Shown here: positions 2,930 to 38,145 of the stretch, piece after piece
Layout of the letters: every line of letters starts with the position of its first letter
Position numbering within the stretch: position 1 is the stretch's first letter
IMG/VR virus record: IMGVR_UViG_3300032236_000879
Coordinates: 19,247-83,246 of that record
Length of the DNA: 64,000 nucleotides
Strand: one strand, 5' to 3'
Source: a virus
Program-made: the position numbers and the translations under genes
The notes under the pieces: model-generated
Seen by the model: the letters and a program-made list of their open reading frames with translations, nothing else
The model's database searches: none
Told to the model about the DNA's origin: nothing

Positions 2930-3814
2930 TTAGTCTAGCTGCATTTTTGTATCACGCATTTGTCTCGTGAATGAAGGATTCAATCCATTCATCTCAAGGA
3001 TATCATCGCGGATATTCTGATTCCTCTTTTCAGTGTTAAGAACACGGCAGAAGCTATTAGTAATGGCTGCGGTATAATAAGCAAAAGGATTAGAAGATTT
3101 AGCTTCATTGAATCGAAGCCCGACGTAAGTTAATTGAAGGATAGCCGAATTGCGCATCTCATCGTTGTACGTGTATCCACGCCAGTTGAACTTCATTGCA
3201 TACTTCTCACACAGCATCATATACATGCGAGCTAGCTTGTTCGTGATTTTTCCGTGGTCCTTAGAGAAATGTCCGTTCTCAATGCCGCCTACCCAGTGAG
3301 ACTTACCGATACATCGCATTGTGTTGGTTTCGTCTAACTTGAAATGCTGGAAGGGAGGAAAATTAACCTTAATGTGGACCATATCATCTACGTCGTTCCG
3401 GGTGGTCTTATCTTCTAAATCTGAAAAATCTTCACTGTCGTCTTCATCAAACATGATGATATCTTTGGCAGTTTTTTTCTTAGTTGATTTTCTAGGTTGC
3501 TTCTGTGCTACAGGGATGTGATCCCAAGTCATGACCCTGAATATGAGATCAGTGACTGGGATATCTTCTGCTGAAATCTTCTCATTTAATTCTTGTGATA
3601 ATCTAACTGCTCGCACCTCTTTGGCTGATTGTACTTGTTCTGGCTTCAGTGCGTATTCTAAACTAGTTTCCACTGGAGAATCCGGCATGTCGATAATCAA
3701 GTCATAGCGATGATATTCCGGAAGTGTGAAGTAGCAGTATGAGTTTTTGCTTGTGTGTATTTCTTTTAATATGTCTTTGTTGTTTAGATAATTGATAGGT
3801 CTCTTAGAAGTCAT
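2930..3814 (-). CDS. gp55: Late-transcription sigma factor (T4 gp55-like)
   Basis: NYLNNKDILKEI at the N-terminus; FNWRGYTYNDEM and NPFAYYT motifs; T4-like gene order 55-47-46. Confidence 0.85.
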   Translation of the reverse strand: MTSKRPINYLNNKDILKEIHTSKNSYCYFTLPEYHRYDLIIDMPDSPVETSLEYALKPEQVQSAKEVRAVRLSQELNEKISAEDIPVTDLIFRVMTWDHIPVAQKQPRKSTKKKTAKDIIMFDEDDSEDFSDLEDKTTRNDVDDMVHIKVNFPPFQHFKLDETNTMRCIGKSHWVGGIENGHFSKDHGKITNKLARMYMMLCEKYAMKFNWRGYTYNDEMRNSAILQLTYVGLRFNEAKSSNPFAYYTAAITNSFCRVLNTEKRNQNIRDDILEMNGLNPSFTRQMRDTKMQLD

Positions 3815-3843
3815 TAGTACTGGTTTTCCTTTATAGTAACACT

Positions 3844-3872
3844 ATTGTACTAGTACTGTTGTATAAATGCAA
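3844..3872 (-). promoter_or_regulatory. sigma70-type promoter for gp55
   Basis: Minus strand TTGCAT-17 nt-TACAAT upstream of ATG 3814. Confidence 0.6.
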
Positions 3873-3905
3873 CAGTATTGGGTAAAAATTGGGGTTTTTC
3901 TGAGC

Positions 3906-3913
3906 GATAAATA
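3906..3913 (+). promoter_or_regulatory. T4-like late promoter GATAAATA
   Basis: Variant of T4 TATAAATA upstream of the first structural gene; motif recurs before many late genes. Confidence 0.7.
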
Positions 3914-3946
3914 CAATGTAGAGAAATATATTTATCAGAGGGAAAT

Positions 3947-5512: not shown

Positions 5513-5829
5513 TGTCGGGCAATCAAAGTTTATACCCTGCTACTAGTCCATATAATAGTACGAACGTGGCTAACAATTTATTTTTAGATGTTATGTTGTA
5601 TCGTCCTATACCTATGTATCCTAGTGATGTATATATGGTTCTAACTTCGGTGTATGAGTATAGACCTGATCTATTAGCATACGACTTATATGGTGATGCA
5701 AAACTTTGGTGGGTATTTGCTGCACGAAATCCAAACAGATTAGGACCTAATCCTTACTTTAATTTTACTGCTGGTACAGGGATATACATACCTAATATAG
5801 ATACATTGAGGACGGTATTAGGAATATAA
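5512..5829 (+). CDS. gp53: Baseplate wedge protein, LysM-like (T4 gp53-like)
   Basis: YEYRPDLLAYDLYGDAKLWWVFA..N motif. ATG 5512 overlaps the upstream stop and follows GGAGG, so preferred over TTG 5506. Confidence 0.8.
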   Translation: MSGNQSLYPATSPYNSTNVANNLFLDVMLYRPIPMYPSDVYMVLTSVYEYRPDLLAYDLYGDAKLWWVFAARNPNRLGPNPYFNFTAGTGIYIPNIDTLRTVLGI

Positions 5830-5830
5830 G

Positions 5831-22400: not shown

Positions 22401-25400
22401 AGAATAGAATCTTTGTTCGAGGACAAAAGACTGCTGAATGGAACGGAACGGTCAATGCTTGGGGATTCATTCTAAATCAGACTGATATTCACGAATTCAA
22501 TTCTTTCACGAAATATACTAAGGGTGAGATTGTAAAATACAAAAATAAGTATTGGACTTCATTAACCATCATTGAACCATCCGGCGTCTTTGATGAGACA
22601 AAGTGGAAGCAGATCAATTACAGCAAGATTCAGCAAGGAATGTTTGCTAACCCAAGCACTCGTGCATATGAAAGCACGTTGTATTATGATGCACAGAAGG
22701 CTAATCTACACCAAGATGCTGATTTGTTATCCTTCTCATTGATCGGCTATCGTCCGCGTGATTATCTCGCACTCATTGACTTGACTGATACTGCACAAGT
22801 TCAAGTCTACAAGAACATGATTAGAAATAAAGGTACGCTCAATGCATTGAATGCATTCAAGGGAGCTAACCTTCCACAGGGCGGAATTCAGTACGACATT
22901 TATGAGAACTGGTCTATTCTAACAGGCACATACGGCGGTGTGCTAAATGAAAATTTTGTAGATTTCAGGCTTCAACAAGCAGACATGACAGGTGATCCTG
23001 CAATTGTCAGCCTAACCAACGGTAACGGTACAGCAGGAACGATGCAAGAAGTGTCGATATATGATCTATACAACTATGGCACGGAGATCACTTCACCTGA
23101 CATTCTTAGTACTACAACAGCAACACCTACACAGATTCTATATCCTAGTGCAGGATACGTCAACTTCAATGATGTCAAGATGTCAACATATTTCTATTCG
23201 GGATTGCCTACCGCAACAGATATAAATGGCAAGATCATTCCTATTCAGAATTTCTATGTCGGTGAATTCATCTGGATGGCAAACTTCAAAGAGAAGTGGG
23301 GCGTCTTTAGATGGAAGCCTATCGGTCAAGTAACCCAGGTCAGAAATAATCAAAACCAAACAGCAACAGTCACGTTCAACACTCCGCACGGATTGAGCAA
23401 GTTAGATCCAATGGCAATCATCAACTTTGCTACATCGGTTGACGGGTACTATATCGTGACTGACGTTGTTAATTTATATGAAGTCATCATTAATCTATCA
23501 ATCGTTGGTGCTAATCAGACAACTGTTCAAGGGCGTGGGCTGGGCTTCGCATTCGAATCACAGCGTGTTGCGACTCCAAGTGAGATTGAAACACTTAATT
23601 TAACTGAGAATGAATTCATCAAGAACCTAGTGTGGGTAGATGAAAATAATGACGGTGGTTGGGCAGTCTATGAGAAGAGCATCAATTACCTATATCAAAA
23701 TCAATTACAGCTTCCAGAATCTACTACATATGGTTCCGCAGTCGCATACACTGATACATCAGGATATCTCGTAGGGGATGCGGGCGCTAACCGTGTTTAT
23801 CGATATTCTTATAACAATGTATCCGGTCAATCGACACTCACTCAAACTGTTGTACCATACGGTGGATCCATTGCTACCTCATTCGGATCAAATATCGCAT
23901 ATGCTAAGAATATCTATGTGATCGGTGCTAATGGTCCAGGTGAAGATGACATTGGTAATTTTATCTATGTAATAAATGATAGCATCATTTCAACTGATAT
24001 GCTAAAATATCAGAATGATTACATCTATGCGTCAGCCGCTGACATCGCAATGTCAGATGATGCTAATTGGCTATATGTGTCTGATATTGCAAATGGGCTT
24101 GTTTTAGCATATCGCAGAGATAACATCACATTTAATGCAGGGTATTTCACTTCAGGTGAAACTTACATTATCGATAGTTTAGGCACTACTGATTTTACTG
24201 CTATTGGTGCTATACAAAACAAAGTTGGAATTGCATTTATTGCAACTGGTCCTGGTACAGGAACAGGTGTCGCAACACAAGCATCATACAAGCTAGCGCA
24301 CATCATCAACTGTGCTGATTTGGGACTGACTGCTGATAGTAAATTCGGTAATTCTCTATCAACCAACTATGATGGTAGTGTTCTGATGATAGGTGCTCCT
24401 GATGTAGCTGATACTAGTCCGGTTCTTGCTAACTGGGGTGCGGCATATGTTTATCAGCGAGCAGTACAAACATTTGAAGCTCAGTATTCGAGCGTTCCTT
24501 ATCAACCGTTCGCATTTAATCTAGCCTGGACACCCCAGACAAACACATTCCTTCCTCCGCAGACATTGACTTCGACTACTGTTATTGGAAATTACATTTA
24601 TGTTAATGATGCAACTTATCTTAGAATAAACATGCCTGTCATGTTCATCGCTGGAAGTGCAGGTGCTGGATTAAATAATAGCGGAATCAATCCATACGTC
24701 ACTTATTATATTGCAGATATTATAGAAAACACAATTGCATTAAAGACCTCACGTTCAACTAGCACTATTGTTAGCTTGATTGATGGTACAATCACATGCA
24801 CTATGTATCCGCAATATGATGTGAACGGAAGCACTAGGGTTTATGTTTCTGTTAACGGCAAAGTGGTTCAAGATAACAACTATGCATTAGCCGGAAGTAC
24901 TCTGTACTATACAGGTAATTTACAAGTAGGTGACATTGTTAACGTTAGTGGTACTGATTTCTTTATGGCGCAAGAATTTAATTCTGAGTACAACAATAGA
25001 CCTGATGTATATTTTGGTACTTCTGTTGCAGTCACAAAGTATGGATCAACTGTTCTTGTAGGTTCACCGTATGAAATCGATACAGACGGTAAAGAAGGTG
25101 CAGTATATAGTTATACAAACGGCGGTGCAAAATATGGTCTAGTGATCGGTACATCACCTTGTAATATCACATCTGCTAGAACATTATTAATTAATGGGTT
25201 TGCAGTATACTTACCTATCGGAAATGCCGCTGTAGTGGCAAATGCGATAAATGGTTCAAATATTAATAATATACAAGCAGCCGCAACTGCTGATAATAAG
25301 ATCATGATTCAGCTTATTAATAGTTCTCTGGCAGGAGTTGATAACAAATTGTTATTGACAACATTTGACAGTAATCTATTTGGTGAGCTGGGTGTGGAAC

Positions 25401-28400
25401 TATTTACTAATACTCAGATTATCAAGTGCCCGCATCAATTTGGTCCAACTGAGTTCGGGTACAAAGTAAAAACAAATCATGCAAATAGTATCGTAATCTC
25501 TGCTCCTGTTGGTACACGATATGAAGGTACAGTATTTGATTTTACAGATGACAATAATCTAGACAATGATACTGTGTTCGATAATAATGCGACTCAGTTT
25601 GTAGATACTTATCCAAATGCCGGTGCAGTATATATGTTTGAGTATCTCTCAAATTATAATGAAAATCTGGCAAATCCTGGAACATGGACTTACGCACAAA
25701 GCACAAATGATATCTCAACTGATTATGGATATAATCCTCAATACGGTGCAGCACTAGATTTCAATCAATATAATGTGATGATAGGTTCTCCGAACTTCCA
25801 ACCATATACTCTTGGTGGAGAAGTCATCGTTTATAATAATGCTACAGGCGCGAATGACTGGACAGTCTATAGACAGAGTGCACCTGTTGTAGATATCAAC
25901 AAGGTTCAGAATACACAACTGTATAGTGCTTCTACTAATAACACACTCACCAATCTTGACTACATCGATCCTCTGCAAAATAAACTTCTAGGTGCTGCTC
26001 GTGAGAATCTCGACTTTGTGACAGGAGTAGATCCTGCTGTTTATAATGTGAGCTATAACGCAGAAGCTGGCCCAGTCTGGGGAGCACCTCAAGTGGGTAA
26101 GCTATGGTTTGATACAGCAAACGTGAGATGGGTGAACTATCATCAGAATGATGTAGTATACAATAGCAAATATTGGGGAGAAGTATTCCCTGGATCAGAC
26201 GTTGCAGTCTATAGTTGGATCGCTAGCTTCATTCCGCCTCAGAACTACCAAGGACCCGGCGTTCCGTATGATGTGAATCAATTTGTCGTCAACAATACAA
26301 TGAACTCATCAAACGTTGTTGTTCCTGTTTATTATTTCTGGGTACGTAACACTAATGTAATTTTCAGCAAGACAGGTAAAACGTTATCTGATTCTGTCGT
26401 TCAGAATTACATTTCTAATCCTCGTACTTCCGGTATTCCATTCATGGCTCCGGTATTACCGAACACATTCTCTATCTATAATTCAGGTAATTTCTTCAAT
26501 GCAGATGACACGGTGTTCCATATTGGATTTGCGAATGGATCGTCACAGGATATCGTTCACAACGAATACTCATTGATCAGAGAAAATTTTGCAGATGATT
26601 TCTTGCCTGGATTCCCTAATACAAATAATGCACACAATGAATCAGGAGTTCACGGTGATATCGGAAAAGAATATATCTACGGTGCACCATCGTCGCTATA
26701 CGCTAAGATGATCGACTCTCTTGCAGGATGTACTCCTGCAGGAAATATCGTACCTGATCCATTCTTACCTTTGGCAGTTCAATCAGGTGTTCTAGTTCGC
26801 CCAAGCCAGAGCTTCTTCTATGATAGATTTGCGGCATTAGATAATTACTTGTCATATGCCAACAGCGTATTGATCAATTATCCAATCTTTGAATTACGTG
26901 AAGAACTCTCGTTCTTGTTCACATCCGGAACTTATTTTAATACTCCGGATTATTGGAGCTATGTTGATTGGTGGGCTACCGGTTATAATAATAGCACAAA
27001 GGCATCAGTGCAAGTAGCAGTGTATGCTGATCTATCCACATTGAATGTTCCGGTTGGTACTATCGCAAAAGTAAATCAAAATGGTGCAGGCAAGTGGGAA
27101 GTATATATTCAATCATACACCAATATTTGGACAAGAATTGGATTACAGAACGGAACACTTCAGTTCAGCAGTTCTCTCTGGGATTACTCGGCTGGTAAGT
27201 TAGGTTGGTCAGGAAACTTCTTTGACACAACTCCGTTTGATCTCTATCCTAGTGAAGAAACCCGAAGCATCGTTCGTGCATTGAACGAACAGATTTATAT
27301 TGGTGATCTATTGATTCATAGAAACAAGAGCTTGATCTTGCTATTTGAATACATTCAATCTGAAACAATTGAATCTCAGAATTTCTTACCTTGGTTAAAC
27401 AAGACTTCATTGGTTGATGTTGCTCACACCATCCGTGAACTGCTTCCTTATGAAGTATATAAAACAGATGATCAAGTATTCTTATCTGGATATGTCAATG
27501 AAGCCAAACCATATCGTGTTGTCATTAAGGACTTCTTATTCAAATATACAAAAACTGATGTATTTGAAGGTGACATAACTGACTTTGATCTTCCTGCAAT
27601 CTACGATTCAGTAAATCAACAATTCGTATCACCACAGTTAATCTATACAACCGATACTAGCAGCGATTATGAATTTAATACTACTAGTCAAATCTGGCAG
27701 AATGTAAACTATTCTCAGTGGTTCCAACACTACGGTCTATCAGTAACTGGACAACCTGAGTTCCCGATCACAATTTTAAGTTCATATCTAAATCGTAGAT
27801 CAACTTATATTATTGTAGATAATGCACACGGTTTCCCAACTAACGGTATCATAACAATTGGAACAGAACAGATCAGCTATTCATATGTTGATCGTGCCCT
27901 TAATATCATAGGTGGACTGACTAGAGGGGTGAATCAAACTACTCCAGTAGATCATATTCCAGGAGAACAAATCATCATTGATCTTCCTGCTGTGATACTA
28001 TTGGATGGGGGCCGTGGTTATGCTAATCCGCCTAAAGTGACAGCGGTATTCGATACTACAAAATATCCTGCTCCTAGAGAAGATGCGACATTTGAAGCAG
28101 TATTAGGAAATGGTTCTGTCGTTCAGATCAATGTCACTAATCCAGGGAGTGGATATGCAGTTCTACCTGATCTAGTAATCGAACCTGCATTGACTGTCTA
28201 TTTTGATAACACAAACATCAATTCAAGATTCCATACAATTAACGTGTATGCACCTGCACTACAAACAGGCGATCTAATTCAATATAGACCTGGAACAGGC
28301 GCTGGTGCCGGAAGACTCGCAGATGGGCAGTGGTATTATATCAACGTCCTAGAAACTAGCACGATTTCTGTCATCGGATTGTATACGACTTATAGCAATG

Positions 28401-31400
28401 CAATCAACGATCAGGATAGAGTAACAATATTCGATAATGGAACAGCCGCAGGGATGTCATTGAATCTAGGTGCCAAAGCATCTATCATTACTTCTTCTGC
28501 ACCTGTTAGAGAAAATATTGTTACACTACGTTTTGATAGAACCTCATATGGATCAAAGATTCAAGATTGGCAAGCCGATTCGTTCTATGGTGCTTATTTC
28601 GCAGGTAGCTATTATAGCGTAGATACAACATCATCTAGTTCTCCGCTTCTATTAGAAAACACAAATCCTGATATTAATACGATTACTGCTTCTGCCGATG
28701 GTGTGACGTTTGAAATTACTAGTGTTTCAAATGAAGAGCAAACCACATGGTCATCTTACACTCGATCGGTGGGTAGCACGATTGCTGCAAATAATGCTAT
28801 CAGACTCATTCCTCAAGATGGGAACAACAATCCATTAGGGGCTGAACCTAATGCATCGGGTACGACAATTGGATTCTATGTAGGAATGCCAATCAAGTTC
28901 CACGGAACTGTCATCGGTGGAATAGTACAGGATCAAGTTTATTATGTTGCACAGGTATTGAATGAGATTGATTTTACTATCTCTGCAATATCAGGTGGAT
29001 CAGTTGTCAGTTTGACAAATTCTACTGCTAATTATCCACTCTATTGCTACACAGGTGAAGTAGTCGATACTGCGCTCATCAATGTAAACTATCCAGGCAT
29101 ATTAACTGCTACTGCAACTTCAGCCAGTAACAATGCGATCACTGTTCCATTGACAGCAATAGGTACAGGCGGTACTAATGGATTCTATCCAGGATTGACT
29201 GTATTTTTTACCGGCACTGATTCACAGTTTACTGCATTTGGAAATGCGATCACTGCAAATGAAGTCTATTATGTTAACACAATAATCGATGAACAAACAT
29301 TCACTATTTCTGAATTCAAGAATCCTACATTTACGAATGTGCTGCATAATGTTACAGAAAATAACACAGTTTACCCTATCACTGCTAATGTAACACAGAC
29401 TATTGGTTCAACCGATATAGTTGTTGTAGATTCTACGCAAGACTTTAATCTACATGATCCTGTGATCTTTAATTCAATGGTTGTCTCTGGGAACCCAGTA
29501 ACAACATTCGGTGGAATCGTTTCGGGAACAGTGTACTACGTAAGTCAAATTGTCAACGGTACTGAAATGAAGATTTCCCAGACATCGACTGGGGTAACAT
29601 ATAATCTATCAGATCAAACAGGTACAGCGATTGCTACTAACCAAAGTAACGTAGTTCAGCTTACAACTGCCACTGGTCAATTGACCCTTAATGTTGCATT
29701 GCCAGTAAGCCCGGGACAAGTCAATGGACAAAAATTAAAGTTCTATCAAACATCAACCCAGTTTACTGGAATAAACACAGGTGTTATTAGCAACCTAATC
29801 AAAACAAGTGTTGATGCTACTATTGGTACTGTAAACAAGATTGCAGTTGGAACAACAACTAATTTCTATACTAATATGCCTGTGCAGTTTGAGGTTGCAA
29901 CAGGTGGGTTGCTTACAGGAACAACTTACTATGTCATAGATTATACAGGCAATGGTGGCATTACTCCTACATTACAGGTTGTTGTTTCAGCTACTTCTTC
30001 GACTGGAAATAAATTGATCTGTAAGTCTGGAACTAATACTGGTGACTTATATGTAAATATGCCATTGATATTCTCCGGTACCGGACTCGGAGGAATCATC
30101 ATCGGTGAAGTATACTACGTCAAAAGTGTAGTAGATAGCACACACTTCACGGTCTCGCTATCTCCGGGCGGAGCTACATTAACTTTAGCAAATGACTCAG
30201 GGTACATGTTAGGTACCGGGGATTCTTATATCACTGTTTCACTCACACCCGGTGGTTCTCTCGTATCATTGTCTACTAGCACAACCGCTTCAACATTAGA
30301 TCAGATTGTCACTGCTACTCCTACATTTGATATTTCTTATATACTCGGTGGATATAGAGCAATCATTGCAAACGGCGGAACAGGTTTTGCAGTAGATAAC
30401 GTGATCACTATTAGTGGTACTGCGGTCGGCGGAGTATCCCCTGCAAATGATATTATAATAACAGTTGCTGCGGTTGACACAAATGGTGCAATAACCAGTA
30501 TATCTCTTGCAGGTAATCCGCCCGACATTGAGTTGAGTTATTATGTGAAAGTAGTTTCTGCAACAGGATTAGAACTCTACCAAGATTCACTTTTATCTAT
30601 TCCAGTAAACGGTAAGACATTACCATATACAGGATTTACAAGTGCTAATGTAACTCAAACAAGTAGCACCGGAAATATTATTACAGTATCAAGTTCTACT
30701 GCATTCAGTATAAATGATGAAGTCATTTTTACTGGAAACGTGATCGGTAATATCGTATTAGGTCAACCTTACTACGTGATCTCAAAGCCATCATCAACAC
30801 AGATCAGAGTATCACAATTGCCAAATGGTTCACCGTTCAATCCAGGCAATGCAACAGGATCATGCTTAGTGACGAAGCCAGGAAGCTTTGCATATCTACC
30901 TGAACCATTCTACTTCCAACCATCTATCATCAGATACAATAACAGGCTATATGAATGCTTAGTATCAAATAATGATCCTGAGTTCGTGTTCGGTAAATGG
31001 CAATTGATTGATTCGGGTGCTCGCAATATCAATGCAATGGACAGAGTCATTGGTTACTATCAACCAACTGCAAATATGCCAGGCAAAGATTTAACACAAT
31101 TGTTCGAGGGCGTTTCATATCCAAACCCAATCTATTATGGTAATGCTTTCCAACCATCACAGCAATTCGAGCTAGATACATTATTACAAGATCAACCATT
31201 CTACCCTACCGGAGTTCAACTTACTTCAGTCGTATACAATAACGGTGAATACTATGCTGCATCAAATCTAACAGATTATTCAGCAGTATTGTATAGTACA
31301 GACAACGTAAATTGGGCATTGACTAAATTGAGTAGCGTGAATGTACACACAACTGATATCATTTATCACAATAGTGTCTATGTGATGACTTCGAATAATT

Positions 31401-34400
31401 CTGCAACACCTATCTTTAGAAGTAGCAATGGAATCGATTGGAGCACTAACGGATACTTCACTCCTTGGGGAGCAGACGGTTGGTCTGATTTCAACTATGA
31501 TATGACTTCACTGAATGTTGCTGCACTTGCATTAAACAGTGTAACGACATTTAATAACTTCTGGTTTGCAGCAGGTGATAGTATCGTGTCTAGCAATGAC
31601 ACATATGTCTGGGGCAAGGTACATTCTTATCCTTCTGCAAACGCAGTGACACTATATAGCATTGCTTCTGTTTCGATTCCTAATTTTACAGGATTGATTG
31701 CAGTAGGTAAAGGGTTGAGACTCGACTATTCTACTGGAACAACTCAGCTAGTCCCTACAGATATTATCTCAACTAGTACAGACGGGTTGATCTGGCAAGA
31801 CCTTGCCTCGCTCACTGATAAAACATTCCGCGCAGTGGCAGCTAATACAAACAGAATCACTGTTGTTGGTGACAGCGGAGTTATCTACTACTCTACTGAT
31901 GGAATAAACTTCTTAGGATTGAATGAAGCAACAGTAACTAACGTAGATGACGCGAATAACATTCTATCGTTAACCAACACTGCTGGGCTGACCGTAGGGG
32001 ATACTATTAGATTCACTACTGCATTTTCATCTATTCTAGCAGGAACAACATATTTTGTCAAGAGCATCATCAGCCCGACAAGAATAACAATTTCTGCTAC
32101 ATTAGGCGGTGCCACTAAAACATTGACTCCTTATGCTATCAATAGTCAAATCATCGCATATAAGTATGATCCAGCTAATCCAAATCCGAATGCATTGTAC
32201 AATATCATCTATGCTAATGATCTCTGGGTAGCAATCGGTGCTGCAGGAACAATCAAGACTTCTTCAGATGGTATGTCATGGACTGTACGTTCATCAGGTA
32301 CAACACATAATCTGAACGGTATTATTTGGTCAGGTACAGAATTCACAGTAGTAGGTGATAACAATACAGTAATAACTTCTACTGATGGCATCACTTGGTC
32401 GGGCTCAACGATATTCAGTGTCTTGCCTTCAACATATGATGTCAAGGGAGCAGATTTCCAATACGGATATGCACCGGAAGAACTCGTTGCAGGAAATGTT
32501 CGTGATGATCTAGCGATGACAGTAGTCACCCGTCCCGGAACAAACTGGGATGCAGCAGAATATTCAAACGTTGGATATAATGTTATATCTATTGAGGTTG
32601 CACCGAAAACACAAACACAAACTATCTATAACTTTGATCGTATTGTTCAAGTTCCAGTACAGGTATCAGTACAAGTACTAGATGCATCTACTATGTTAGG
32701 AACAACACTATCACCGACTCAGTATAGTGTAGACTGGGTGAACAAAAATATCATCCTAAACTCTCCTATCTCATTCACTCCTGACATGCAGAAGTTGAGG
32801 ATTGATATATATGAAGTTGGAAATGGGGAACAGCTAGTAAAAGCAAGTACACATAATGATCCGATCAGAACTAACGTAGATACCGGATTTAACGAGATTT
32901 ACTTAAATTGTAATTACAGTGCTAACATCTTTAATGGTAGTGGTGTGATCAAACCCGGTTCATTTGATCTAACAGTGACTGCTGTTGCAACAGATAGCAT
33001 TACCAATTCAATAACGTGCGATGATGTATCCCAGTTTTCAATTGGACAAGCGGTGACATTTACAGGGGTGGTATTTGGAAACCTACAAACCAATACCACT
33101 TATTACATCAAATCAATCAGTATGATAACTGAATCTATCACAGTATCATTATCATATGATCCTATTACAGGAATCGCAGGACCTACTACAAACTTGACCA
33201 CCGATACAGGAACAATGTCTGTTAACCTAGCATACGGTTCAGATATTCCTTGGACTACTCCTTATGTAGTTCACAATGGAACTAGACTTGTTCAAGGTTA
33301 CTCAAGTCAAGTGACAGGAACGTCTTCTATAACCAATACCGTCATCACTAATTCTACTGCTGGTATGACTGTAGGAATGCCAGTAACATTCAGTAAGAGT
33401 GTGTTTGGTGTGCTTTCTCCTATAACAAGATACTACGTAGCATCAATCATAGATAATAATAATTTCACTGTTTCTGCAACTCCTAATGGATCAACAGTGA
33501 CCCTTACTGATGCAGCAGGTGCAGCATATTATATCACTAATGATTTCGCATTTGGGTTACAGCCAAACAAAATTCAAGCAACACTCATATTTGCAACTGA
33601 TACATATACTCGTGCAAATGATTATATTGCTTACTCTGTGTTCGGGGAATCTGAACCAGCAGAATACGGATATACTGTTCCGGAAAGACAAGAATTTGTA
33701 GCGAACGGAACTACAGTAGCATTCACCTTAGGTAACTATGTCGGTGGTGATAACCCAACAAATGCAATCGTAGAGATCAACGGGATTCGTCAATCGTCAT
33801 CCAAATACACTATTAGCTTTGGTACTAATAGTGTTATATTTGCAACACCTCCTGCAAATGGTGCGATTGTCGCAGTCACGAGCTACAATGTCACTGATCG
33901 TCAATATCTAAATAGCCAATACGGTATCACAGGTAATGTTGGAAGTGCATTTGCTACTTTTGTGGTAGGACAAACTAACAACGTGACCGGAACATGGGAT
34001 CAAAATTCACCGTCCGCGCAGACATGGGATGAGAATTCTCCTTCAATTATCTCGTGGGATGAGCAACAAAATTGGTTGACATTAAGTTCAGGTACTACAG
34101 GAGTATTGCACGTAAACGATCCTATCATCTTTAGTGCTCCTACTATCGGTGGACTCGTTGCCGGACAAACATACTATGTGACTCAGATTCTTGACACAAG
34201 TAATTTTGTGATTTCTGCTACATTGGGTGGTCCGGCAGTCGTATTAACTAACGATACCGGATCAATGACTGCAAATGCGAATGCGTTGATCGTTGCTCAG
34301 ATCACTAACATAAACAATAACATTACATCTCCTATTGCAGATACAGTTGCTACTGCTACAGCGACCGGAACTAATAGAATAACAGTACTAAGCACGAGCG

Positions 34401-35920
34401 GATTTATCGCAGGTGCTACTGTTCAGTTCCGTGGTACTTCTTTCGGTGGACTTGCAACTGATGGTACTATCTATTTTGTGGGAACAATAGTTGATGGAAC
34501 ACACTTTACTATCGTTGATTCTACTAACACAACTGTTCCGCTCTCAAATGCTACTGGAACAGTAGAAGTTATCGTCGGTGGTCAGCCTGCAGTACGTGTC
34601 ATAACTGCAATTCAAACTGGATTCGCAACTAACACCTTAATAAGAATCGATGGAACTCAAGGTTCTACTCAATTGAACAACAATACATATTATGTAAGAG
34701 TGATTGATCCGTATACATTTGATCTTTATACCCAACCGTTCACTGCGGCATTGAATGGTGTTAATTATCCGGTAACTAATGTCTCAAATTATGTGTCTGG
34801 TGGATTCATATGGAGACAGGGAACATTCTATCTGATCGACACATATGCAACCGCAACTACAGCAGCTAACGGACGTATCACTGTAGCTTCGACAGCAAAG
34901 TTAGTATACGGCACTCCGGTATACTTTACCCAATCTGGATATCAGAACGGACAGACTTTGATGGGAAATCTTGTTCAGGGAACAGAATACTATGTACGTG
35001 ATATAATTGATGCTACACATTTTACGGTTTCATCAACTAGAGGTGGCCCGATAACAACAGTCACCACTGACACTGGATATATCAATGTTACACAGTGGGA
35101 ACAGGGTAATGTTGACCGTCTATGGGTAACAGTCAATGGTTATCGCGTACCTTCTTCTAAGCTAAAGCTCAATGCAGTGAATGAAGTCAGCATCTTGACT
35201 ACTATTAATCCAGGCGATGAAGTTGTGATGACCAGCATGATTCCTAATGCTACACCAAATCAAGAAATCTACTTGAACTTTGTTGATGTGTATGGTGCGG
35301 GATCAGTATATAGAGCAGGTGCTGAAACTAGAACTTGGTTGACGCAAACCTTAGGCATTCTAGATACAGTCATGTACGTCAATGATGTTACTTCTTTAAC
35401 AAAAGAAATAATACAAAATGTAACTGCTCCGACAGAAGTAAACGGATACTATAACATTGGATTAACCGTAGATAAGAGAATTCTTACTGGGGTTACAGTA
35501 CTCAACCATACAAAAAATCTGTATATCAATAGCAGCTATGTGAACGTGATACTTGTAGATTCTTCTCCTATAGTGCAGATCACTGCAGGCTCTTGGATCA
35601 ACACAGGTGATCTACTCACCGTTATCACACTTGAAGGTAATACAGTATTCATGAACGGTGAACAGATCAGATTTAGTAGCGTAGATTTTGTGACTAATAC
35701 ATTGAGTGGACTAGAGCGAGGCGCGAATGGCACGGGTGCACAACTCATAATTCCGCAATATACTGAAGTATATGGATTGTTAGATTCGGACAGATTGACT
35801 GATGTTGAATATCATCAAGTCTGGAATTCATATGTATATAACACAGTAGATGGTGACCCTCTACAGATTAGTCAGACTGTTTCTGCTACATTCTTAAGTG
35901 CTAGTGAGTATCCTGAATGA
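16418..35920 (+). CDS. Giant (6500 aa) multidomain baseplate/adhesin protein, probable gp7-like wedge scaffold
   Basis: Uninterrupted ORF following gp6; N-terminus FLPEVFQT..N.QFL.ATLDQL; FG-GAP-like propeller (~23700-25860), Asp-box S.DG..W repeats (~31200-32420), about 16 copies of a G...G..YYV..I...FT.S beta domain. Confidence 0.75.
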   Translation: MARIRTLNFLPEVFQTPPNAQFLAATLDQLVNSPNVANVQGYVGSKFGTGVNATDAYVPEPTKARVDYQLDPAVVFTKPNETTANDFVTYPGILDAIKLAGGITDDNSKLFTSQFYSWDSFTNLDPLINFNQYYWLPDGPPAVTVAASTIFSKEAFVVTSNTNSYSIVREGSTTSNANPPITLLRGGTYTFAVNQNTRFWIQGAPGISGYSPTQPNQPVRDVYGVTNNGVETGFVTFEVPLKNAQDEFNFPNTVNVDVISTTSFDNINGQFVNSFAGIDGITSLLGLTVAFYNTPQEIAYISSYYGETSYDTNDPALVPPATLSIASCNTSAFTLASGNTSGLVVGGTVTFTGTVFGGVNPGQVYFINSIPSSNSFTIATSLNGPTLTLTAASGSMTANVNQGLYEDGYNANINTTFFTVTYIGDPTNPIIRLVPSGAIPSNTKIVPVYGVEWNNRPFYLDVANNLELIPYISAPLDVLYYQDGTDPNKVGTIHLIESNLNNTIDVDLQILGKKNYTAPNGVVFTNGLKVEFDGDVIPTSYLTGQYYVQGVGTAIELVNVETLVVPEKFSEGEYIAWDVTSWDIGNYDISLDIPVLADYIVIARNAISKNAWARSNRWFHIDVINATAKYNNDPTIVTTYATAANKAARPIIEFYPNLKLFDSGATGVNPVDFIDTTNTDALSTVPGSVAYYPDVQVYSTASATITASPTTPVSAGSFVVGNTYQISTYGTTTDWNAIAGTSYQNYAVGSRFVCVNAGSGNGFAVPLATSTTITVAASALNGTLADYMFIADSTGILPANSQITNISGTTTLTLTVTWAIPQNVVGASGVILYASDTTVNNYGLFPGARVIFAGDSDPNVRNKIYVSNFSVIAPSTTPTITLIVAEDGIIGPDTQTVITRGYTNAGLSYWFDGLYWNQAQQKVYLNQAPKFDVFDANGVSFGDSTVYPSTTFAGSKLFAYGLGTGTKDPVLGFPIRYSSVSNLGDISFDVSLNSDTFNYVYNSNPVTQKVNTGYVYNYTNAATYKRLLGWETAIAPSQQYQILEFNFVPGTTQTSNQFLCDIAPLAPLGPHETGWPRVKVYINNEYQDTNTYTYTTTDTTTTVILNTLPTVKTVIQILILSDQVSKAGYYQIPLNLSNNPFNTDLTVVNTGDIRTQYQDIFINSPIVTGTIFGTNNFRDCGDLVPYGTKIIQNSASLVLPGMSLRNPQYNLFNALQFNSNEYIKYKQLIVDTVQNTDYVQRYTPSQILDDAISQIAAAKSEVNAFFWSDMLPNQNSYISNTYVFNNDLDRSQYPLSHVYNFESANYNGVLVYLTRNIGGILAERQLITGVEYVISTDSPTLTITIPMLQGDNVTIKEYNQTYGSYVPNTPTKLGIYPKFIPGVVLDPNYTIPTYFIQGHDGSYTKLYGDYIPEANVLVDFRDQALLEFEQRVYNNLKLSTETPIKRYEVVPGFFRTSTYTWDQYLQIYSTQFLNWIGQNRIDYKTQYFSRVNEFTYNYTNSTSKVDNNPIVQGYWRGLYEYYYDTTTPNTTPWEMLGFEIMPDWWTSRYGPAPYTSDNGILWGDLEQGLVWNNGEPYINPLVARPGLSKIIPVDSNGNLLSPYKVIVGNYNPSTFNKDWKVGDDAPAELSYRRSSTYPFDLTRIFALTRPAEFYNLCVDLDHYKYNVEFNQYLVDDRSHLVPANIQVYGNGIAKTSYLNWIVDFEKQQGIDSTTELTTSLNNLDVRLVYRLAGYSDKSLLQFYVEKPSPSSTNASLLIPNESYAILLYDNQAFDRIMFSGVIVQQNDSYWTVYGNSQTNAYFQILDPNFNGNWTTLTTENISVKVAQSYSTNVSLVPYGTKFYSTQDLAQFLISYGKYLESKGMVFDAIENGIHVTWQQMVYEYLYWVQTGWSIGSIITLNPAATTMDINQPSAIVQPLTIQQQNFVLNQNLYPIKLNDLCINRDGTLLHMHTLNAGDTMAYAQFNLSNFEHGIVFDNYTLFNDTIYNLITGLYQNRIFVRGQKTAEWNGTVNAWGFILNQTDIHEFNSFTKYTKGEIVKYKNKYWTSLTIIEPSGVFDETKWKQINYSKIQQGMFANPSTRAYESTLYYDAQKANLHQDADLLSFSLIGYRPRDYLALIDLTDTAQVQVYKNMIRNKGTLNALNAFKGANLPQGGIQYDIYENWSILTGTYGGVLNENFVDFRLQQADMTGDPAIVSLTNGNGTAGTMQEVSIYDLYNYGTEITSPDILSTTTATPTQILYPSAGYVNFNDVKMSTYFYSGLPTATDINGKIIPIQNFYVGEFIWMANFKEKWGVFRWKPIGQVTQVRNNQNQTATVTFNTPHGLSKLDPMAIINFATSVDGYYIVTDVVNLYEVIINLSIVGANQTTVQGRGLGFAFESQRVATPSEIETLNLTENEFIKNLVWVDENNDGGWAVYEKSINYLYQNQLQLPESTTYGSAVAYTDTSGYLVGDAGANRVYRYSYNNVSGQSTLTQTVVPYGGSIATSFGSNIAYAKNIYVIGANGPGEDDIGNFIYVINDSIISTDMLKYQNDYIYASAADIAMSDDANWLYVSDIANGLVLAYRRDNITFNAGYFTSGETYIIDSLGTTDFTAIGAIQNKVGIAFIATGPGTGTGVATQASYKLAHIINCADLGLTADSKFGNSLSTNYDGSVLMIGAPDVADTSPVLANWGAAYVYQRAVQTFEAQYSSVPYQPFAFNLAWTPQTNTFLPPQTLTSTTVIGNYIYVNDATYLRINMPVMFIAGSAGAGLNNSGINPYVTYYIADIIENTIALKTSRSTSTIVSLIDGTITCTMYPQYDVNGSTRVYVSVNGKVVQDNNYALAGSTLYYTGNLQVGDIVNVSGTDFFMAQEFNSEYNNRPDVYFGTSVAVTKYGSTVLVGSPYEIDTDGKEGAVYSYTNGGAKYGLVIGTSPCNITSARTLLINGFAVYLPIGNAAVVANAINGSNINNIQAAATADNKIMIQLINSSLAGVDNKLLLTTFDSNLFGELGVELFTNTQIIKCPHQFGPTEFGYKVKTNHANSIVISAPVGTRYEGTVFDFTDDNNLDNDTVFDNNATQFVDTYPNAGAVYMFEYLSNYNENLANPGTWTYAQSTNDISTDYGYNPQYGAALDFNQYNVMIGSPNFQPYTLGGEVIVYNNATGANDWTVYRQSAPVVDINKVQNTQLYSASTNNTLTNLDYIDPLQNKLLGAARENLDFVTGVDPAVYNVSYNAEAGPVWGAPQVGKLWFDTANVRWVNYHQNDVVYNSKYWGEVFPGSDVAVYSWIASFIPPQNYQGPGVPYDVNQFVVNNTMNSSNVVVPVYYFWVRNTNVIFSKTGKTLSDSVVQNYISNPRTSGIPFMAPVLPNTFSIYNSGNFFNADDTVFHIGFANGSSQDIVHNEYSLIRENFADDFLPGFPNTNNAHNESGVHGDIGKEYIYGAPSSLYAKMIDSLAGCTPAGNIVPDPFLPLAVQSGVLVRPSQSFFYDRFAALDNYLSYANSVLINYPIFELREELSFLFTSGTYFNTPDYWSYVDWWATGYNNSTKASVQVAVYADLSTLNVPVGTIAKVNQNGAGKWEVYIQSYTNIWTRIGLQNGTLQFSSSLWDYSAGKLGWSGNFFDTTPFDLYPSEETRSIVRALNEQIYIGDLLIHRNKSLILLFEYIQSETIESQNFLPWLNKTSLVDVAHTIRELLPYEVYKTDDQVFLSGYVNEAKPYRVVIKDFLFKYTKTDVFEGDITDFDLPAIYDSVNQQFVSPQLIYTTDTSSDYEFNTTSQIWQNVNYSQWFQHYGLSVTGQPEFPITILSSYLNRRSTYIIVDNAHGFPTNGIITIGTEQISYSYVDRALNIIGGLTRGVNQTTPVDHIPGEQIIIDLPAVILLDGGRGYANPPKVTAVFDTTKYPAPREDATFEAVLGNGSVVQINVTNPGSGYAVLPDLVIEPALTVYFDNTNINSRFHTINVYAPALQTGDLIQYRPGTGAGAGRLADGQWYYINVLETSTISVIGLYTTYSNAINDQDRVTIFDNGTAAGMSLNLGAKASIITSSAPVRENIVTLRFDRTSYGSKIQDWQADSFYGAYFAGSYYSVDTTSSSSPLLLENTNPDINTITASADGVTFEITSVSNEEQTTWSSYTRSVGSTIAANNAIRLIPQDGNNNPLGAEPNASGTTIGFYVGMPIKFHGTVIGGIVQDQVYYVAQVLNEIDFTISAISGGSVVSLTNSTANYPLYCYTGEVVDTALINVNYPGILTATATSASNNAITVPLTAIGTGGTNGFYPGLTVFFTGTDSQFTAFGNAITANEVYYVNTIIDEQTFTISEFKNPTFTNVLHNVTENNTVYPITANVTQTIGSTDIVVVDSTQDFNLHDPVIFNSMVVSGNPVTTFGGIVSGTVYYVSQIVNGTEMKISQTSTGVTYNLSDQTGTAIATNQSNVVQLTTATGQLTLNVALPVSPGQVNGQKLKFYQTSTQFTGINTGVISNLIKTSVDATIGTVNKIAVGTTTNFYTNMPVQFEVATGGLLTGTTYYVIDYTGNGGITPTLQVVVSATSSTGNKLICKSGTNTGDLYVNMPLIFSGTGLGGIIIGEVYYVKSVVDSTHFTVSLSPGGATLTLANDSGYMLGTGDSYITVSLTPGGSLVSLSTSTTASTLDQIVTATPTFDISYILGGYRAIIANGGTGFAVDNVITISGTAVGGVSPANDIIITVAAVDTNGAITSISLAGNPPDIELSYYVKVVSATGLELYQDSLLSIPVNGKTLPYTGFTSANVTQTSSTGNIITVSSSTAFSINDEVIFTGNVIGNIVLGQPYYVISKPSSTQIRVSQLPNGSPFNPGNATGSCLVTKPGSFAYLPEPFYFQPSIIRYNNRLYECLVSNNDPEFVFGKWQLIDSGARNINAMDRVIGYYQPTANMPGKDLTQLFEGVSYPNPIYYGNAFQPSQQFELDTLLQDQPFYPTGVQLTSVVYNNGEYYAASNLTDYSAVLYSTDNVNWALTKLSSVNVHTTDIIYHNSVYVMTSNNSATPIFRSSNGIDWSTNGYFTPWGADGWSDFNYDMTSLNVAALALNSVTTFNNFWFAAGDSIVSSNDTYVWGKVHSYPSANAVTLYSIASVSIPNFTGLIAVGKGLRLDYSTGTTQLVPTDIISTSTDGLIWQDLASLTDKTFRAVAANTNRITVVGDSGVIYYSTDGINFLGLNEATVTNVDDANNILSLTNTAGLTVGDTIRFTTAFSSILAGTTYFVKSIISPTRITISATLGGATKTLTPYAINSQIIAYKYDPANPNPNALYNIIYANDLWVAIGAAGTIKTSSDGMSWTVRSSGTTHNLNGIIWSGTEFTVVGDNNTVITSTDGITWSGSTIFSVLPSTYDVKGADFQYGYAPEELVAGNVRDDLAMTVVTRPGTNWDAAEYSNVGYNVISIEVAPKTQTQTIYNFDRIVQVPVQVSVQVLDASTMLGTTLSPTQYSVDWVNKNIILNSPISFTPDMQKLRIDIYEVGNGEQLVKASTHNDPIRTNVDTGFNEIYLNCNYSANIFNGSGVIKPGSFDLTVTAVATDSITNSITCDDVSQFSIGQAVTFTGVVFGNLQTNTTYYIKSISMITESITVSLSYDPITGIAGPTTNLTTDTGTMSVNLAYGSDIPWTTPYVVHNGTRLVQGYSSQVTGTSSITNTVITNSTAGMTVGMPVTFSKSVFGVLSPITRYYVASIIDNNNFTVSATPNGSTVTLTDAAGAAYYITNDFAFGLQPNKIQATLIFATDTYTRANDYIAYSVFGESEPAEYGYTVPERQEFVANGTTVAFTLGNYVGGDNPTNAIVEINGIRQSSSKYTISFGTNSVIFATPPANGAIVAVTSYNVTDRQYLNSQYGITGNVGSAFATFVVGQTNNVTGTWDQNSPSAQTWDENSPSIISWDEQQNWLTLSSGTTGVLHVNDPIIFSAPTIGGLVAGQTYYVTQILDTSNFVISATLGGPAVVLTNDTGSMTANANALIVAQITNINNNITSPIADTVATATATGTNRITVLSTSGFIAGATVQFRGTSFGGLATDGTIYFVGTIVDGTHFTIVDSTNTTVPLSNATGTVEVIVGGQPAVRVITAIQTGFATNTLIRIDGTQGSTQLNNNTYYVRVIDPYTFDLYTQPFTAALNGVNYPVTNVSNYVSGGFIWRQGTFYLIDTYATATTAANGRITVASTAKLVYGTPVYFTQSGYQNGQTLMGNLVQGTEYYVRDIIDATHFTVSSTRGGPITTVTTDTGYINVTQWEQGNVDRLWVTVNGYRVPSSKLKLNAVNEVSILTTINPGDEVVMTSMIPNATPNQEIYLNFVDVYGAGSVYRAGAETRTWLTQTLGILDTVMYVNDVTSLTKEIIQNVTAPTEVNGYYNIGLTVDKRILTGVTVLNHTKNLYINSSYVNVILVDSSPIVQITAGSWINTGDLLTVITLEGNTVFMNGEQIRFSSVDFVTNTLSGLERGANGTGAQLIIPQYTEVYGLLDSDRLTDVEYHQVWNSYVYNTVDGDPLQISQTVSATFLSASEYPE

Positions 35921-35926
35921 TAAATA
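35919..35926 (+). promoter_or_regulatory. T4-like late promoter GATAAATA
   Basis: Overlaps the stop of the giant gene, upstream of the leader-bearing genes. Confidence 0.7.
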
Positions 35927-35967
35927 AAAGAACACATTCTTTGAATGTTTAATTGGAAACGGAATAC

Positions 35968-36720
35968 ATGAGTAATTCAGACGACTTTAGAAAATTGATG
36001 ACTCTCCTAGAGTCGATTGAACAGGGAAATCAATCCCAGCAGCTGGATGAGATTTTTGGTATTCCTGATCTTCCGGATTGGGTTCCTGGCAGTAAAGCAA
36101 ATAAAAAAATGAAAGCTGATGAAAAAGCTAGTGAAGAAAAATATAAGAAAGAATCCGAAGAAGTTGATCGTGTTTGGGATAATATTAAGGCAAGAAGCCA
36201 ATCTATTCCGGTGTGGATGTATTTCTTTTGGCAGCCAAGCCAAACAATGGATTCATTAAAAGAAGTTGCTCAAACGACTGGAATCTTAGAACCTTTTTTT
36301 GTTGATGCTAGTTATGACCCGGTTAAAGGAACAGGCAAAGCTTCAAATCCGAATGCTGATGCATCAGGAATAATAGGTTCAATGTTGGCGGGTATGTTAG
36401 CAGTAGGGATAGTACCATCTAGTTATCTTGTATACCAAGGTAAAATATTGAAAAGTCCCTTAACAGGTCATAGAGCTATTGTTCATAGTCCGGGTATGTT
36501 TCCCGGTATGAGTGATTTCGGCAATCTTGATCATCCGGATACTGCAAGTTCAAAAAATAAGATAATCGATATTGTAAAACGTTGGACAGGACGGGGCGGG
36601 CCTCCTAATGGCGGCGGTGAAAGAACAACTGAACCTCAAAAAACTACTGTTGCACCTCCGGGCGGACAAGGAAGCAACGTGATTCCCCTTAGACCGGTAG
36701 CTAATAGAAGAGCAGCATAA
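35968..36720 (+). CDS. Putative internal head (cargo) protein 1 with conserved N-terminal leader
   Basis: Start moved to ATG 35968 by alignment with the two downstream genes; leader MSNSDDFRKLMTLLESIEQGNQSQQLDE. Confidence 0.6.
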   Translation: MSNSDDFRKLMTLLESIEQGNQSQQLDEIFGIPDLPDWVPGSKANKKMKADEKASEEKYKKESEEVDRVWDNIKARSQSIPVWMYFFWQPSQTMDSLKEVAQTTGILEPFFVDASYDPVKGTGKASNPNADASGIIGSMLAGMLAVGIVPSSYLVYQGKILKSPLTGHRAIVHSPGMFPGMSDFGNLDHPDTASSKNKIIDIVKRWTGRGGPPNGGGERTTEPQKTTVAPPGGQGSNVIPLRPVANRRAA

Positions 36721-36730
36721 AGGACAACAA

Positions 36731-37168
36731 ATGAACTCAGACGACTTTAGAAAAATGATGACTCTACTGGAGTCAATTGAAACCCCGACACATCAGATAG
36801 ATGAAGGCAAAGAACATCATGATGTATCATCAGGTAAATGGGCTGCTAGCGTTCCTGAAGGTCAGAAAGCACTCAATACTGCTTCAAACATAGTTTATAA
36901 TAAACCGTTTGAACAACTTGACCCAGCTATTCGAAAAGTATTAGTTGCTGCTATAACTGCTGCTGCTACAGTAGAAGAATGGTGGAAAACTGATTGGTTG
37001 GGAAACATTAAGGAACATTACTCACAGTTTATGTGTCCTAAACCCGAAGATGTCATCAATCGTCTTCGTTCTGAATACCCTGAAATCATTACAGACAACA
37101 AACTTAATTCCGCAGTTAAACAAACCGTTAAAGAGTGGCGTAAATATCACCGCACCGCGGCTCAATAA
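36731..37168 (+). CDS. Putative internal head (cargo) protein 2
   Basis: Leader MNSDDFRKMMTLLESIETPTHQIDE; AAGGA RBS; body unrelated to its neighbours. Confidence 0.6.
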   Translation: MNSDDFRKMMTLLESIETPTHQIDEGKEHHDVSSGKWAASVPEGQKALNTASNIVYNKPFEQLDPAIRKVLVAAITAAATVEEWWKTDWLGNIKEHYSQFMCPKPEDVINRLRSEYPEIITDNKLNSAVKQTVKEWRKYHRTAAQ

Positions 37169-37204
37169 ATCTTTATACACAAATAATGAAAAAAGCAGAT
37201 AAAA

Positions 37205-38014
37205 ATGAACTCAAATGACTTTAGAAAAATGATGACTCTACTAGAGTCGATTGAGCAAGGGCGCCCAACACACCAATTAGATGAGATTTTTGGTATATTT
37301 GGTCGTGGGGATAAGCAGGGACAACTAGCAGACGAAATCAAGAAAACTGAAATCATACTAAATTCAGCCATACAAGCTAAAGAACTTTGGGAAAAGCTTG
37401 AAGGAGAAAGCCAATCTGCTCCGATCTGGTTATACTTCACAACAGATCAACACACTTCCCCCGGTGTAGTAAGTAATATACGAAGAGCCGCTGCTATCAG
37501 TAAATTTAATACCTTTTTCGGAGAGTATTCATTCGCTGACACACCATATCAACAGACTGATCTTAGAATAAATCTTGAACGTTGGGATAATATAGCTCAA
37601 CCGTATGATCTTGAATACGGAGGGAATGGATTTTATTATGGTAATGCTGTAAAGTTAATACAAGTTTATAAGTGTTATAACTTTAACTTTCCTACTAGTT
37701 CTATTCTATACAAAGGAAAGGTTATAGAAAGCGGTAATTATTCTGGAGCAGGTAAGACTACGTTTGTTCATACACCTAAAGCTACTGCTAGTGGTAACCT
37801 TCAGGATGAGAATTGGAGAGATAATCCAGACTCTGGACACTCTTTTGAAAGAATAGTTGATATTGTGAAACAGTATTGTAATTGGGAAGACGGTCATTCT
37901 ATTGGTTCCTTCCCACCAGAAGGTGTATCGTTAGCCCCTGATGGTAACGGATTGGATTGGGGAATCAATCACTTTAGCGAAAAACTAGATGAACTTAGAA
38001 AGCAGCGTAGATGA
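37205..38014 (+). CDS. Putative internal head (cargo) protein 3, paralog of protein 1
   Basis: Leader MNSNDFRKMMTLLESIEQGRPTHQLDE; shares DEIFGI, SQS.P.W.YF, Y.GK...S and I.DIVK with 35968. Confidence 0.6.
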   Translation: MNSNDFRKMMTLLESIEQGRPTHQLDEIFGIFGRGDKQGQLADEIKKTEIILNSAIQAKELWEKLEGESQSAPIWLYFTTDQHTSPGVVSNIRRAAAISKFNTFFGEYSFADTPYQQTDLRINLERWDNIAQPYDLEYGGNGFYYGNAVKLIQVYKCYNFNFPTSSILYKGKVIESGNYSGAGKTTFVHTPKATASGNLQDENWRDNPDSGHSFERIVDIVKQYCNWEDGHSIGSFPPEGVSLAPDGNGLDWGINHFSEKLDELRKQRR

Positions 38015-38145
38015 AATCGAATAATAAGAACAAAGTCACTCCTAGAAAACCGGATGAGGTAGGTGGAATTTATTTTTCTTCTGCTATAAAGATTTTTGAT
38101 CCAAAGACAGGTGAGATAATTTTACATAAAAGAGGAGACGGATAA
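38011..38145 (+). CDS. Small hypothetical protein (44 aa), probably virion-associated
   Basis: Below ORF-track cutoff: MKSNNKNKVTPRKPDEVGGIYFSSAIKIFDPKTGEIILHKRGDG; ATGA overlap upstream and abuts the next ATG. Confidence 0.6.
   Translation: MKSNNKNKVTPRKPDEVGGIYFSSAIKIFDPKTGEIILHKRGDG

Follow-up and report, generated by a model that had tools for sequence, protein, structure and literature searches.

A short N-terminal leader on otherwise unrelated proteins of an uncultured jumbo phage as a candidate capsid-targeting propeptide

In the 64,000-nucleotide stretch of viral DNA analyzed here (the window; bases 19247-83246 of the 83,246-bp IMG/VR record IMGVR_UViG_3300032236_000879), three adjacent genes, termed g1, g2, and g3, open with the same short leader and continue into different bodies. 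The leader is a modular tag that is fixed in position at the N terminus and ends in an L-x-E motif; genes for a prohead protease, a scaffold-like protein, and a capsid protein are present in the same record, a late-type box stands before g1, and g2 is polymorphic as a cassette. The most likely mechanism, to which we give about an even chance, is that the leader would serve as a capsid-targeting propeptide in the style of T4, which the S77 protease would remove, with the tag also mediating exchange of cassettes; docking, cleavage, packaging, and injection are steps that we only infer. An initial annotation had described g1-g3 as cargo genes with a portable leader for capsid loading and injection. 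That description is supported in part, namely by the modular leader, the L-x-E end in the company of a protease, the late-type box, and the polymorphism of the cassette.

Results

The peptide common to g1-g3 reads M(S)NS[DN]DFRK[LM]MTLLESIE...Q[LI]DE. In an alignment of the three proteins, 18 columns over residues 1-28 of g1 are invariant; over their whole length, g2 and g3 are 24% and 33% identical to g1, respectively. In the DNA the leader appears as a 52-nt direct repeat in three copies, at 36729-36780 (taken as the reference), 35969-36020 (83%), and 37203-37254 (92%). A back-translated degenerate pattern for DFRK[LM]MTLLE has three matches in the window, compared with 0.00 expected from 100 shuffles, and in the whole 83,246-bp record the leaders of g1-g3 are the sole matches of a leader profile. 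The open reading frames (ORFs), the DNA repeat, and the pattern search thus bear out the claim that three adjacent genes open with a conserved leader. Position 35919, which had been given as the start of the array, is not coding for g1 but belongs to the box GATAAATA, which overlaps the stop codon of a 6500-aa ORF; the ORF of g1 as listed runs from a TTG (35953..36720), and the leader begins at the ATG at 35968.

Beyond residue 32, the bodies of g1 and g3 are 23% identical (48/209, E 1e-9), whereas hhalign gives the g2 body a probability of 0.2% against the profile of their family (family 1), in agreement with the earlier view that genes 1 and 3 are distant paralogs and gene 2 is unrelated. 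The abrupt divergence that had been described after the leader applies to g2, which departs after about residue 25, but not to g1 and g3, which remain similar as far as QLDEIFGI (about residue 32), have further blocks in common, and are therefore full-length paralogs. A tail, SNV(I/V)P(L/F)(R/K), ends six of the nine family-1 proteins of one alignment (A6; in g1, window 36690-36720) and is absent from g3, its ortholog P0002, and P0012; this C-terminal tail may be a second docking or processing signal.

The proposal that the leader is a separable module on differing payloads is supported by 18 distinct leader proteins with about six unrelated body types, encoded on several uncultured phage contigs, and by the occurrence of the family-1 body without a leader. 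The body types are family 1, g2, P0015/P0019, P0017/P0021, P0018, and P0022; the last is a weak case with an E-value of only 3.2, yet it matches FRKMMTLLES exactly. When 1.84 billion representatives were searched with a profile, 10 proteins matched at E ≤ 1e-3, nine of which have the leader or a variant of it (MSTEEIRKIINLLES, MSTEYFRNLINLLES) at residue 1; the tenth, P0014, has a family-1 body after a different, unrelated N terminus of 200 residues. The search of the genome and its relatives with a profile of the leader, which the initial annotation had suggested, gives the three genes in the record and 18 proteins overall, the leader-only profile contributing 15 proteins, 14 of them at E ≤ 3.9e-9. 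In P0011 (423 aa), a single leader is followed by two tandem family-1 body units, the second of which begins, leaderless, at an [LV]-[DN]-E-F motif, indicating that the leader proper is about 17 residues long and that QLDEIFGI is part of the body unit. P0018 joins the leader to phrog_12635 (E 3.5e-9, profile positions 4-60 of 67), a family that otherwise occurs without it.

The scans of contigs for relatives returned no viral and no metagenome contig at first, and later one viral contig (the same one on repeat) and the metagenome contig L009. Two leader genes lie in tandem on L009, with surrounding genes of other kinds, and three lie within 2.5 kb, amid replication-type genes, on the IMG/VR contig L006; P0003 and P0008 are each listed with an ENA contig of 301,853 bp as the longest, and it is probably the same contig for both. 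A confinement of the leader to g1-g3 as part of a folded domain, which would speak against a portable tag, is removed by its presence on the unrelated bodies of other contigs. The family is absent from cultured phages, inasmuch as the region, g3, and P0009 gave no match by blastn and tblastn to 50,697 phage records, in which P0014 found only chance matches (E ≥ 0.5); T4 and PA5oct had no match to the family or leader profile. No published description of the leader was found in a literature search of limited coverage.

With respect to the payloads, g2 has no homolog besides itself in 5.8 billion clustered proteins, and Pfam and PHROGs gave nothing significant for g1-g3 or their relatives except phrog_12635 in P0018. 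The ESM Atlas gave no usable match, its models having a predicted template-modeling score (pTM) of 0.22 for g1 and 0.59 for g2. A PDB profile search with alignment A5 gave weak matches to NAP1L1 (E 0.14) and to YbbN/chaperedoxin (E 0.8), but a NAP-like or thioredoxin fold for the family-1 body was rejected because the cleaner alignment A10 gave no match at E ≤ 10. No payload matched a defense or anti-defense family or a known fold in Pfam, PHROG, PDB, or the ESM Atlas (PADLOC was not searched), or a fiber or spike family in Pfam or PHROG; the anti-defense role that had been proposed for the payloads is pure conjecture.

Within the leader, positions R7, L12, L13/M13, and E14 are invariant, and the last residue of L-[LM]-E is number 14 or 15 in 17 of the 18 proteins, and likewise in P0017 when that protein is read from an internal ATG. 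The hydrophobic moment of the leader is 0.50-0.64, compared with 0.45 for the tag of T4 IPIII. The tetrapeptide LLES occurs six times in the 60 ORFs of the record (27,063 aa; 0.5 expected): in the three leaders, at residue 5 of the capsid protein, and at residues 19 and 308 of the scaffold-like protein, but nowhere else, including the 6500-aa ORF; the two proteins that contain the three nonleader sites account for about 3% of all residues. The scaffold opens with MNSN...KPLLES, resembling MNSN...MTLLES of the leader. In the public-record sequences of T4, IPII and IPIII have MKTYQEFIAE/A, gp22 has MLKEQLIAE/A, and gp23 has ...FLTE/AEIGG, the slashes marking what we take, from the T4 literature, to be the cut positions; the gp23 site LTE/A aligns with QLLAE/SSAG of the capsid protein of this phage. 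The claim that the leader ends in an L-x-E of the kind cut by T4-type prohead proteases is strengthened by a gp21-type protease in the same record: the 19 kb upstream of the window (L005) contain a T4-type head module on the minus strand (Table 1). The co-occurrence of protease, scaffold, and capsid genes with leader genes is established for the window's own record only.

The region of g1-g3 is represented in three DNA metagenome runs of one study, no RNA run being listed for it, and the Logan contigs of these runs were placed on 35800-38100 at 80% likeness. The form seen in the window has a depth of 26-30. Record 10 of run X2, which is 579 nt long and 97-98% like the window, comprises the end of g1, the 10-nt spacer, and a leader at the position of g2 (36622-36780), followed by 63 other letters and the g3 body from 37327 to 37519 (a joint of 36780 to 37327); these 63 letters are compatible with the linker of P0002, the g3 ortholog of 87% identity, in which it is shorter by three residues. 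In that strain, therefore, g1 is followed directly by g3, without g2, and the difference corresponds to the 474-nt leader-to-leader unit. Record 3 of run X1 (depth 150, 83-86% like) has a g1-type leader, 608 other letters, and g3, with no room for g2. A third joint, 36109 to 36731 (side 30), was too weak for use, and it should be noted for the joints lacking g2 that repeats may mislead assemblers. The joint in a 97-98% identical strain indicates that g2 is a present/absent cassette bounded by leader repeats, which agrees with the suggestion that the DNA repeats permit shuffling of cassettes. The forms without g2 in X2 and X1, together with the abrupt divergence seen in L009, would fit recombination at the leaders.

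The late consensus of T4 is TATAAATA, and GATAAATA is probably the late-promoter variant of this phage. Each of its 10 sites in the 83-kb record is followed within 122 nt by a start on the same strand, whereas only 4.5% of strand-positions lie within such a distance of a start. The number of sites in the window, seven, is not above chance (5.3 expected); TATAAATA itself is rare there (two sites, seven expected), and it is the G-variant that bears the positional signal. Similar boxes precede L006a (CATAAATA), L006c, and L009a. By analogy with the T4 late consensus, the boxes would direct late transcription. The description of g1-g3 as late genes thus gains a late-type box before g1, late transcription itself being presumed from it.

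Discussion

In the mechanism that we prefer, the first 14-17 residues would form a short amphipathic N-terminal helix acting as a capsid-targeting propeptide of the T4 kind. The products of g1-g3 would be made late and docked by the tag on the scaffold or core of the assembling prohead, where the gp21-type (S77) protease would cut after L-L-E, perhaps with a second cut some 12 residues farther on, after L/I-D-E; the mature payload would then remain in the DNA-filled head and probably enter the cell with the DNA. Because every cargo gene bears the same tag, tag-to-tag recombination could add, remove, or swap payload cassettes.

The tagging principle itself is already known from T4, and the T4 internal proteins and gp53/gp54 of SPN3US are close precedents. 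Mullaney and Black are said (PMC9026906, PMC3012670, PMC5694885) to have reported in 1996 that IPI, IPII, and IPIII of T4, together with Alt, carry a capsid-targeting sequence (CTS). According to the available text of the papers cited, T4 head proteins bear propeptides of 10-19 residues at the N terminus that direct them to the prohead core and are cleaved off by gp21 (PMC9026906), the CTS propeptides are common to otherwise diverse internal proteins (PMC9026906, PMC3012670), only the CTS being conserved among the diverse internal proteins of T-even phages (PMC3012670), and prohead proteases of the T4 kind cut after glutamate (PMC5694885). The present system is similar in having a short N-terminal candidate propeptide (14-17 residues) on unrelated proteins; in its (L/I)-x-E end, which is here read from sequence alone; in the gp21/S77 protease, gp22-like scaffold, and gp23-like capsid protein of the same genome; in the resemblance of the tag to the N terminus of the scaffold (gp22 and IPIII in T4, scaffold and leader here); and in genes that are partly adjacent, as are ipII and ipIII, in a set that varies between related phages. 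It differs in that the payloads are unrelated to IPI-III and are not generally basic, whereas T-even internal proteins are described as basic, in that the tag is followed by another conserved motif, [LIV]-D-E-[IA]-F, and in that its phage, an uncultured one, belongs among the jumbo phages of the PA5oct/Rak2-like capsid lineage. The presence or absence of g2 between strains, flanked by tag repeats, is reminiscent of the polymorphic internal-protein loci of T-even phages, but the evidence here consists of metagenome contigs of one study.

In SPN3US, the paralogs gp53 and gp54 (phiKZ gp93 family) are 34% identical overall but have identical first 15 residues, which hold protease motifs and are read as CTS-like by the authors in the available part of their paper (PMC5694885); similarly, g1 and g3, at 33% identity overall, are near-identical over the first 17 residues. 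However, the SPN3US sites are A-x-E or S-x-E and its propeptides exceed 100 residues; the tag is not reported on unrelated bodies in the available text, and processing is backed by mass spectrometry in SPN3US but is predicted from sequence here.

Several observations weigh against a capsid-targeting propeptide. The leader has no similarity to MKTYQEFIAE, with no match in the T4 record at E ≤ 1 and, on visual comparison, no more than a general pattern in common, and the mature payloads, with pI values of 5.0-9.4 and net charges of -16 to +5, are not generally basic. L-x-E is frequent (130 sites in 27,063 aa), so that a fit to this motif says little by itself, and since LLES was chosen post hoc, when the motif had already been seen, its distribution is suggestive rather than a formal test. 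PA5oct retains the scaffold LLES near residue 308, in the form DLLESV, and this site could belong to a structural helix rather than be a cut site; the available text of the PA5oct paper gives no cleavage sites. In L006, the leader genes sit among replication-type genes, and no protease was found in this contig, which is 12% complete, by a search that also missed the family in all 14 control genomes. As the family is found in no cultured phage, published virion proteomes are not transferable to it.

In the main alternative, the leader would be an uncleaved docking helix for a different shared partner; this could be the baseplate or the neighboring giant wedge protein, a chaperone of the phage, or a protein of the host, and accessory proteins of the virion surface or the cytoplasm would then be the payloads. 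An amphipathic helix would be suitable for the docking of any protein to another, the payloads as a group are not basic, g1-g3 lie between the gp6-like wedge gene plus 6500-aa ORF and fiber-like genes, and the family-1 tail SNV(I/V)P(L/F)R suggests a second contact; we nevertheless regard such a helix as rather unlikely, since the context varies (replication-type genes in L006, others in L009) and since it does not explain why L-[LM]-E is invariant and fixed in its distance from Met1 or why LLES, leaders apart, is confined to the capsid protein and scaffold. The tail fibers and tailspikes of one phage share folded N-terminal anchors of about 100 residues or more, followed by fiber or beta-helix bodies. 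The conserved N terminus on variable bodies and the location of g1-g3 in the tail region of the window are reminiscent of these anchors, but a tag of 14-17 residues is far below their usual size, the bodies are not those of fibers or spikes, and the genomic context is not constant.

Two further alternatives dispense with an address function, and they are addressed by the substitution pattern of the leaders. The leader could be left over from tandem paralogs, its likeness maintained through gene conversion or through constraints on the initiation of translation; the paralogy of g1 and g3 is genuine, and the L009 leaders, which differ by one synonymous and one nonsynonymous change over 32 codons and then diverge abruptly, resemble the outcome of recent conversion. 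Within the window, however, dS is 0.62 and dN is 0.03-0.05, indicating that the leader peptide itself is under strong selection and that its conservation is old and at the protein level. Recent gene conversion was consequently rejected as the cause of the likeness of the window leaders, although it does fit L009; the DNA-level conservation of the leader that had been pointed out is real, but its source is purifying selection on the protein rather than recent homogenization. As the leader is also found on mutually nonhomologous bodies (g2, P0015, P0017, P0018, P0022), and the body stands without it in P0014 and in unit two of P0011, a paralog remnant is improbable. An RNA or DNA element with the peptide incidental (a regulatory hairpin, or a recombination or endonuclease site) is more improbable still. 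Each leader does contain the inverted repeat GACTCT-NNN-AGAGTC (36000-36014, 36759-36775, and 37234-37248), which is flagged as terminator-like on the minus strand, and RNAfold predicts a hairpin of 14 bp between the codons for DDFR and those for LES; its z-score is -2.68 for g3. The values for g1 and g2 are just -0.73 and -0.41, so that the hairpin as RNA is not significant in two of the three copies, synonymous changes hit stem and loop alike, and the leaders of L006 and L009 retain the peptide but not the hairpin (-1.8 to -7.8 kcal/mol). An element of this type was therefore rejected as the main cause.

A broader proposal, which we regard as possible but doubtful, is that an uncultured jumbo T4-like clade has a tag of its own, M-x-x-x-x-[FIM]-R-[KN]-x-x-x-L-[LM]-E, unrelated in sequence to the T4 CTS, with which it would load at least six unrelated cargo families into the capsid for co-injection; cargo would be swapped between strains by recombination at the tags, and the dominant cargo, family 1 with its own conserved C-terminal tail, would represent a new kind of injected effector. 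If the capsid-targeting interpretation is correct, the T4 principle of one propeptide for many proteins extends past the T-even phages to the large, mostly uncultured PA5oct/Rak2-like jumbo lineage, and the tag would provide a sequence handle for listing candidate injected proteins straight from metagenomes, as well as a 14-17-residue sequence with which the packaging of foreign proteins in these capsids could be tried. The variation of g2 between strains would be a natural case of cargo turnover at such a locus, provided that the tag works as read. Nothing would be overturned by this, and to a specialist it should seem plausible rather than surprising.

Gene surroundings and minor observations

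The CheckV completeness of the record is 23%, which, for 83,246 bp, points to a genome size of several hundred kb. The window contains gp46/47-like genes, a gp5-like hub, a gp6-like wedge, the 6500-aa ORF, fiber-like genes, and an island of sugar enzymes. The genes g1-g3, which have the same orientation, are directly 3' of the 6500-aa ORF and have the fiber-like genes on their other side; a comparison of synteny showed no conservation of this slot in the Rak2-like phage 7t3. The capsid proteins of Vibrio phage 2.275.O and Pseudomonas phage PA5oct share 67% identity with that of the present phage, and those of Rak2-like jumbo phages share 63-64%.

Table 1. Positions of the leader genes, their motifs, the late-type boxes, and the head module (window coordinates unless L005, the part of the record upstream of the window, is named)
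Feature	Position	Strand	Remarks
Late-type promoter box GATAAATA (putative)	35919..35926	+	49 nt before g1 ATG; overlaps stop of 6500-aa ORF
GATAAATA boxes in window	3906, 3929(-), 12990, 35919, 42649, 47151, 50538(-)	+ unless marked	All just upstream of same-strand starts
g1	35968..36720	+	250 aa from ATG; leader and family-1 body; conserved C-terminal tail SNVIPLRP
g1 leader core MSNSDDFRKLMTLLE	35968..36012	+	15 codons; predicted amphipathic helix, candidate cleavage motif L-L-E at end
g1 second L-D-E motif	36043..36051	+	Residues 26-28; opens body unit QLDEIFGI
Leader-to-leader repeat unit	36729..37254	+	52-nt repeats 36729-36780 and 37203-37254, 474 nt apart; removal gives the form without g2
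g2	36731..37168	+	145 aa; leader and unrelated, probably helical body; strain-specific cassette
g2 leader core MNSDDFRKMMTLLE	36731..36772	+	14 codons
g2 I-D-E motif	36797..36805	+	Residues 23-25
g3	37205..38014	+	269 aa; leader and family-1 body without SNVxPxR tail
g3 leader core MNSNDFRKMMTLLE	37205..37246	+	14 codons
g3 L-D-E motif	37277..37285	+	Residues 25-27
Portal	L005	-	PF07230, T4-type
Acidic gp67-like protein	L005	-	286 aa
Prohead protease, gp21-type (S77)	L005:5240-5878	-	PF03420 Peptidase_S77, E 1.2e-27, 97 bits (cutoff 27)
Scaffold-like protein	L005	-	phrog_10922
gp23-type capsid protein	L005	-	PF07068, E 1.9e-97

The 6500-aa ORF, a single frame at 16418-35920 of the window, is placed after the gp6-like wedge gene. 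In the head module upstream of the window, the portal gene has one in-frame TAA (...CMKLD*EFKLF..., L005:7582-7584, minus strand), and the parts on either side of it match positions 2-340 and 368-433 of the Portal_T4 model; the TAA could be a sequencing error, a split gene, or a site of read-through. On L009, two adjacent large paralogs of 398 and 532 aa (3444-6231) lie just upstream of the leader genes and are built of repeats with the recurring motif NPS..Q..AV......I..I.NP.P.IQ.AA. On the minus strand of L006 (14065-15549), a 494-aa ATPase-like ORF appears, from its translation, to have a long insert inside its P-loop (GESG/C...SSHN/SGKS), which looks like an intein.

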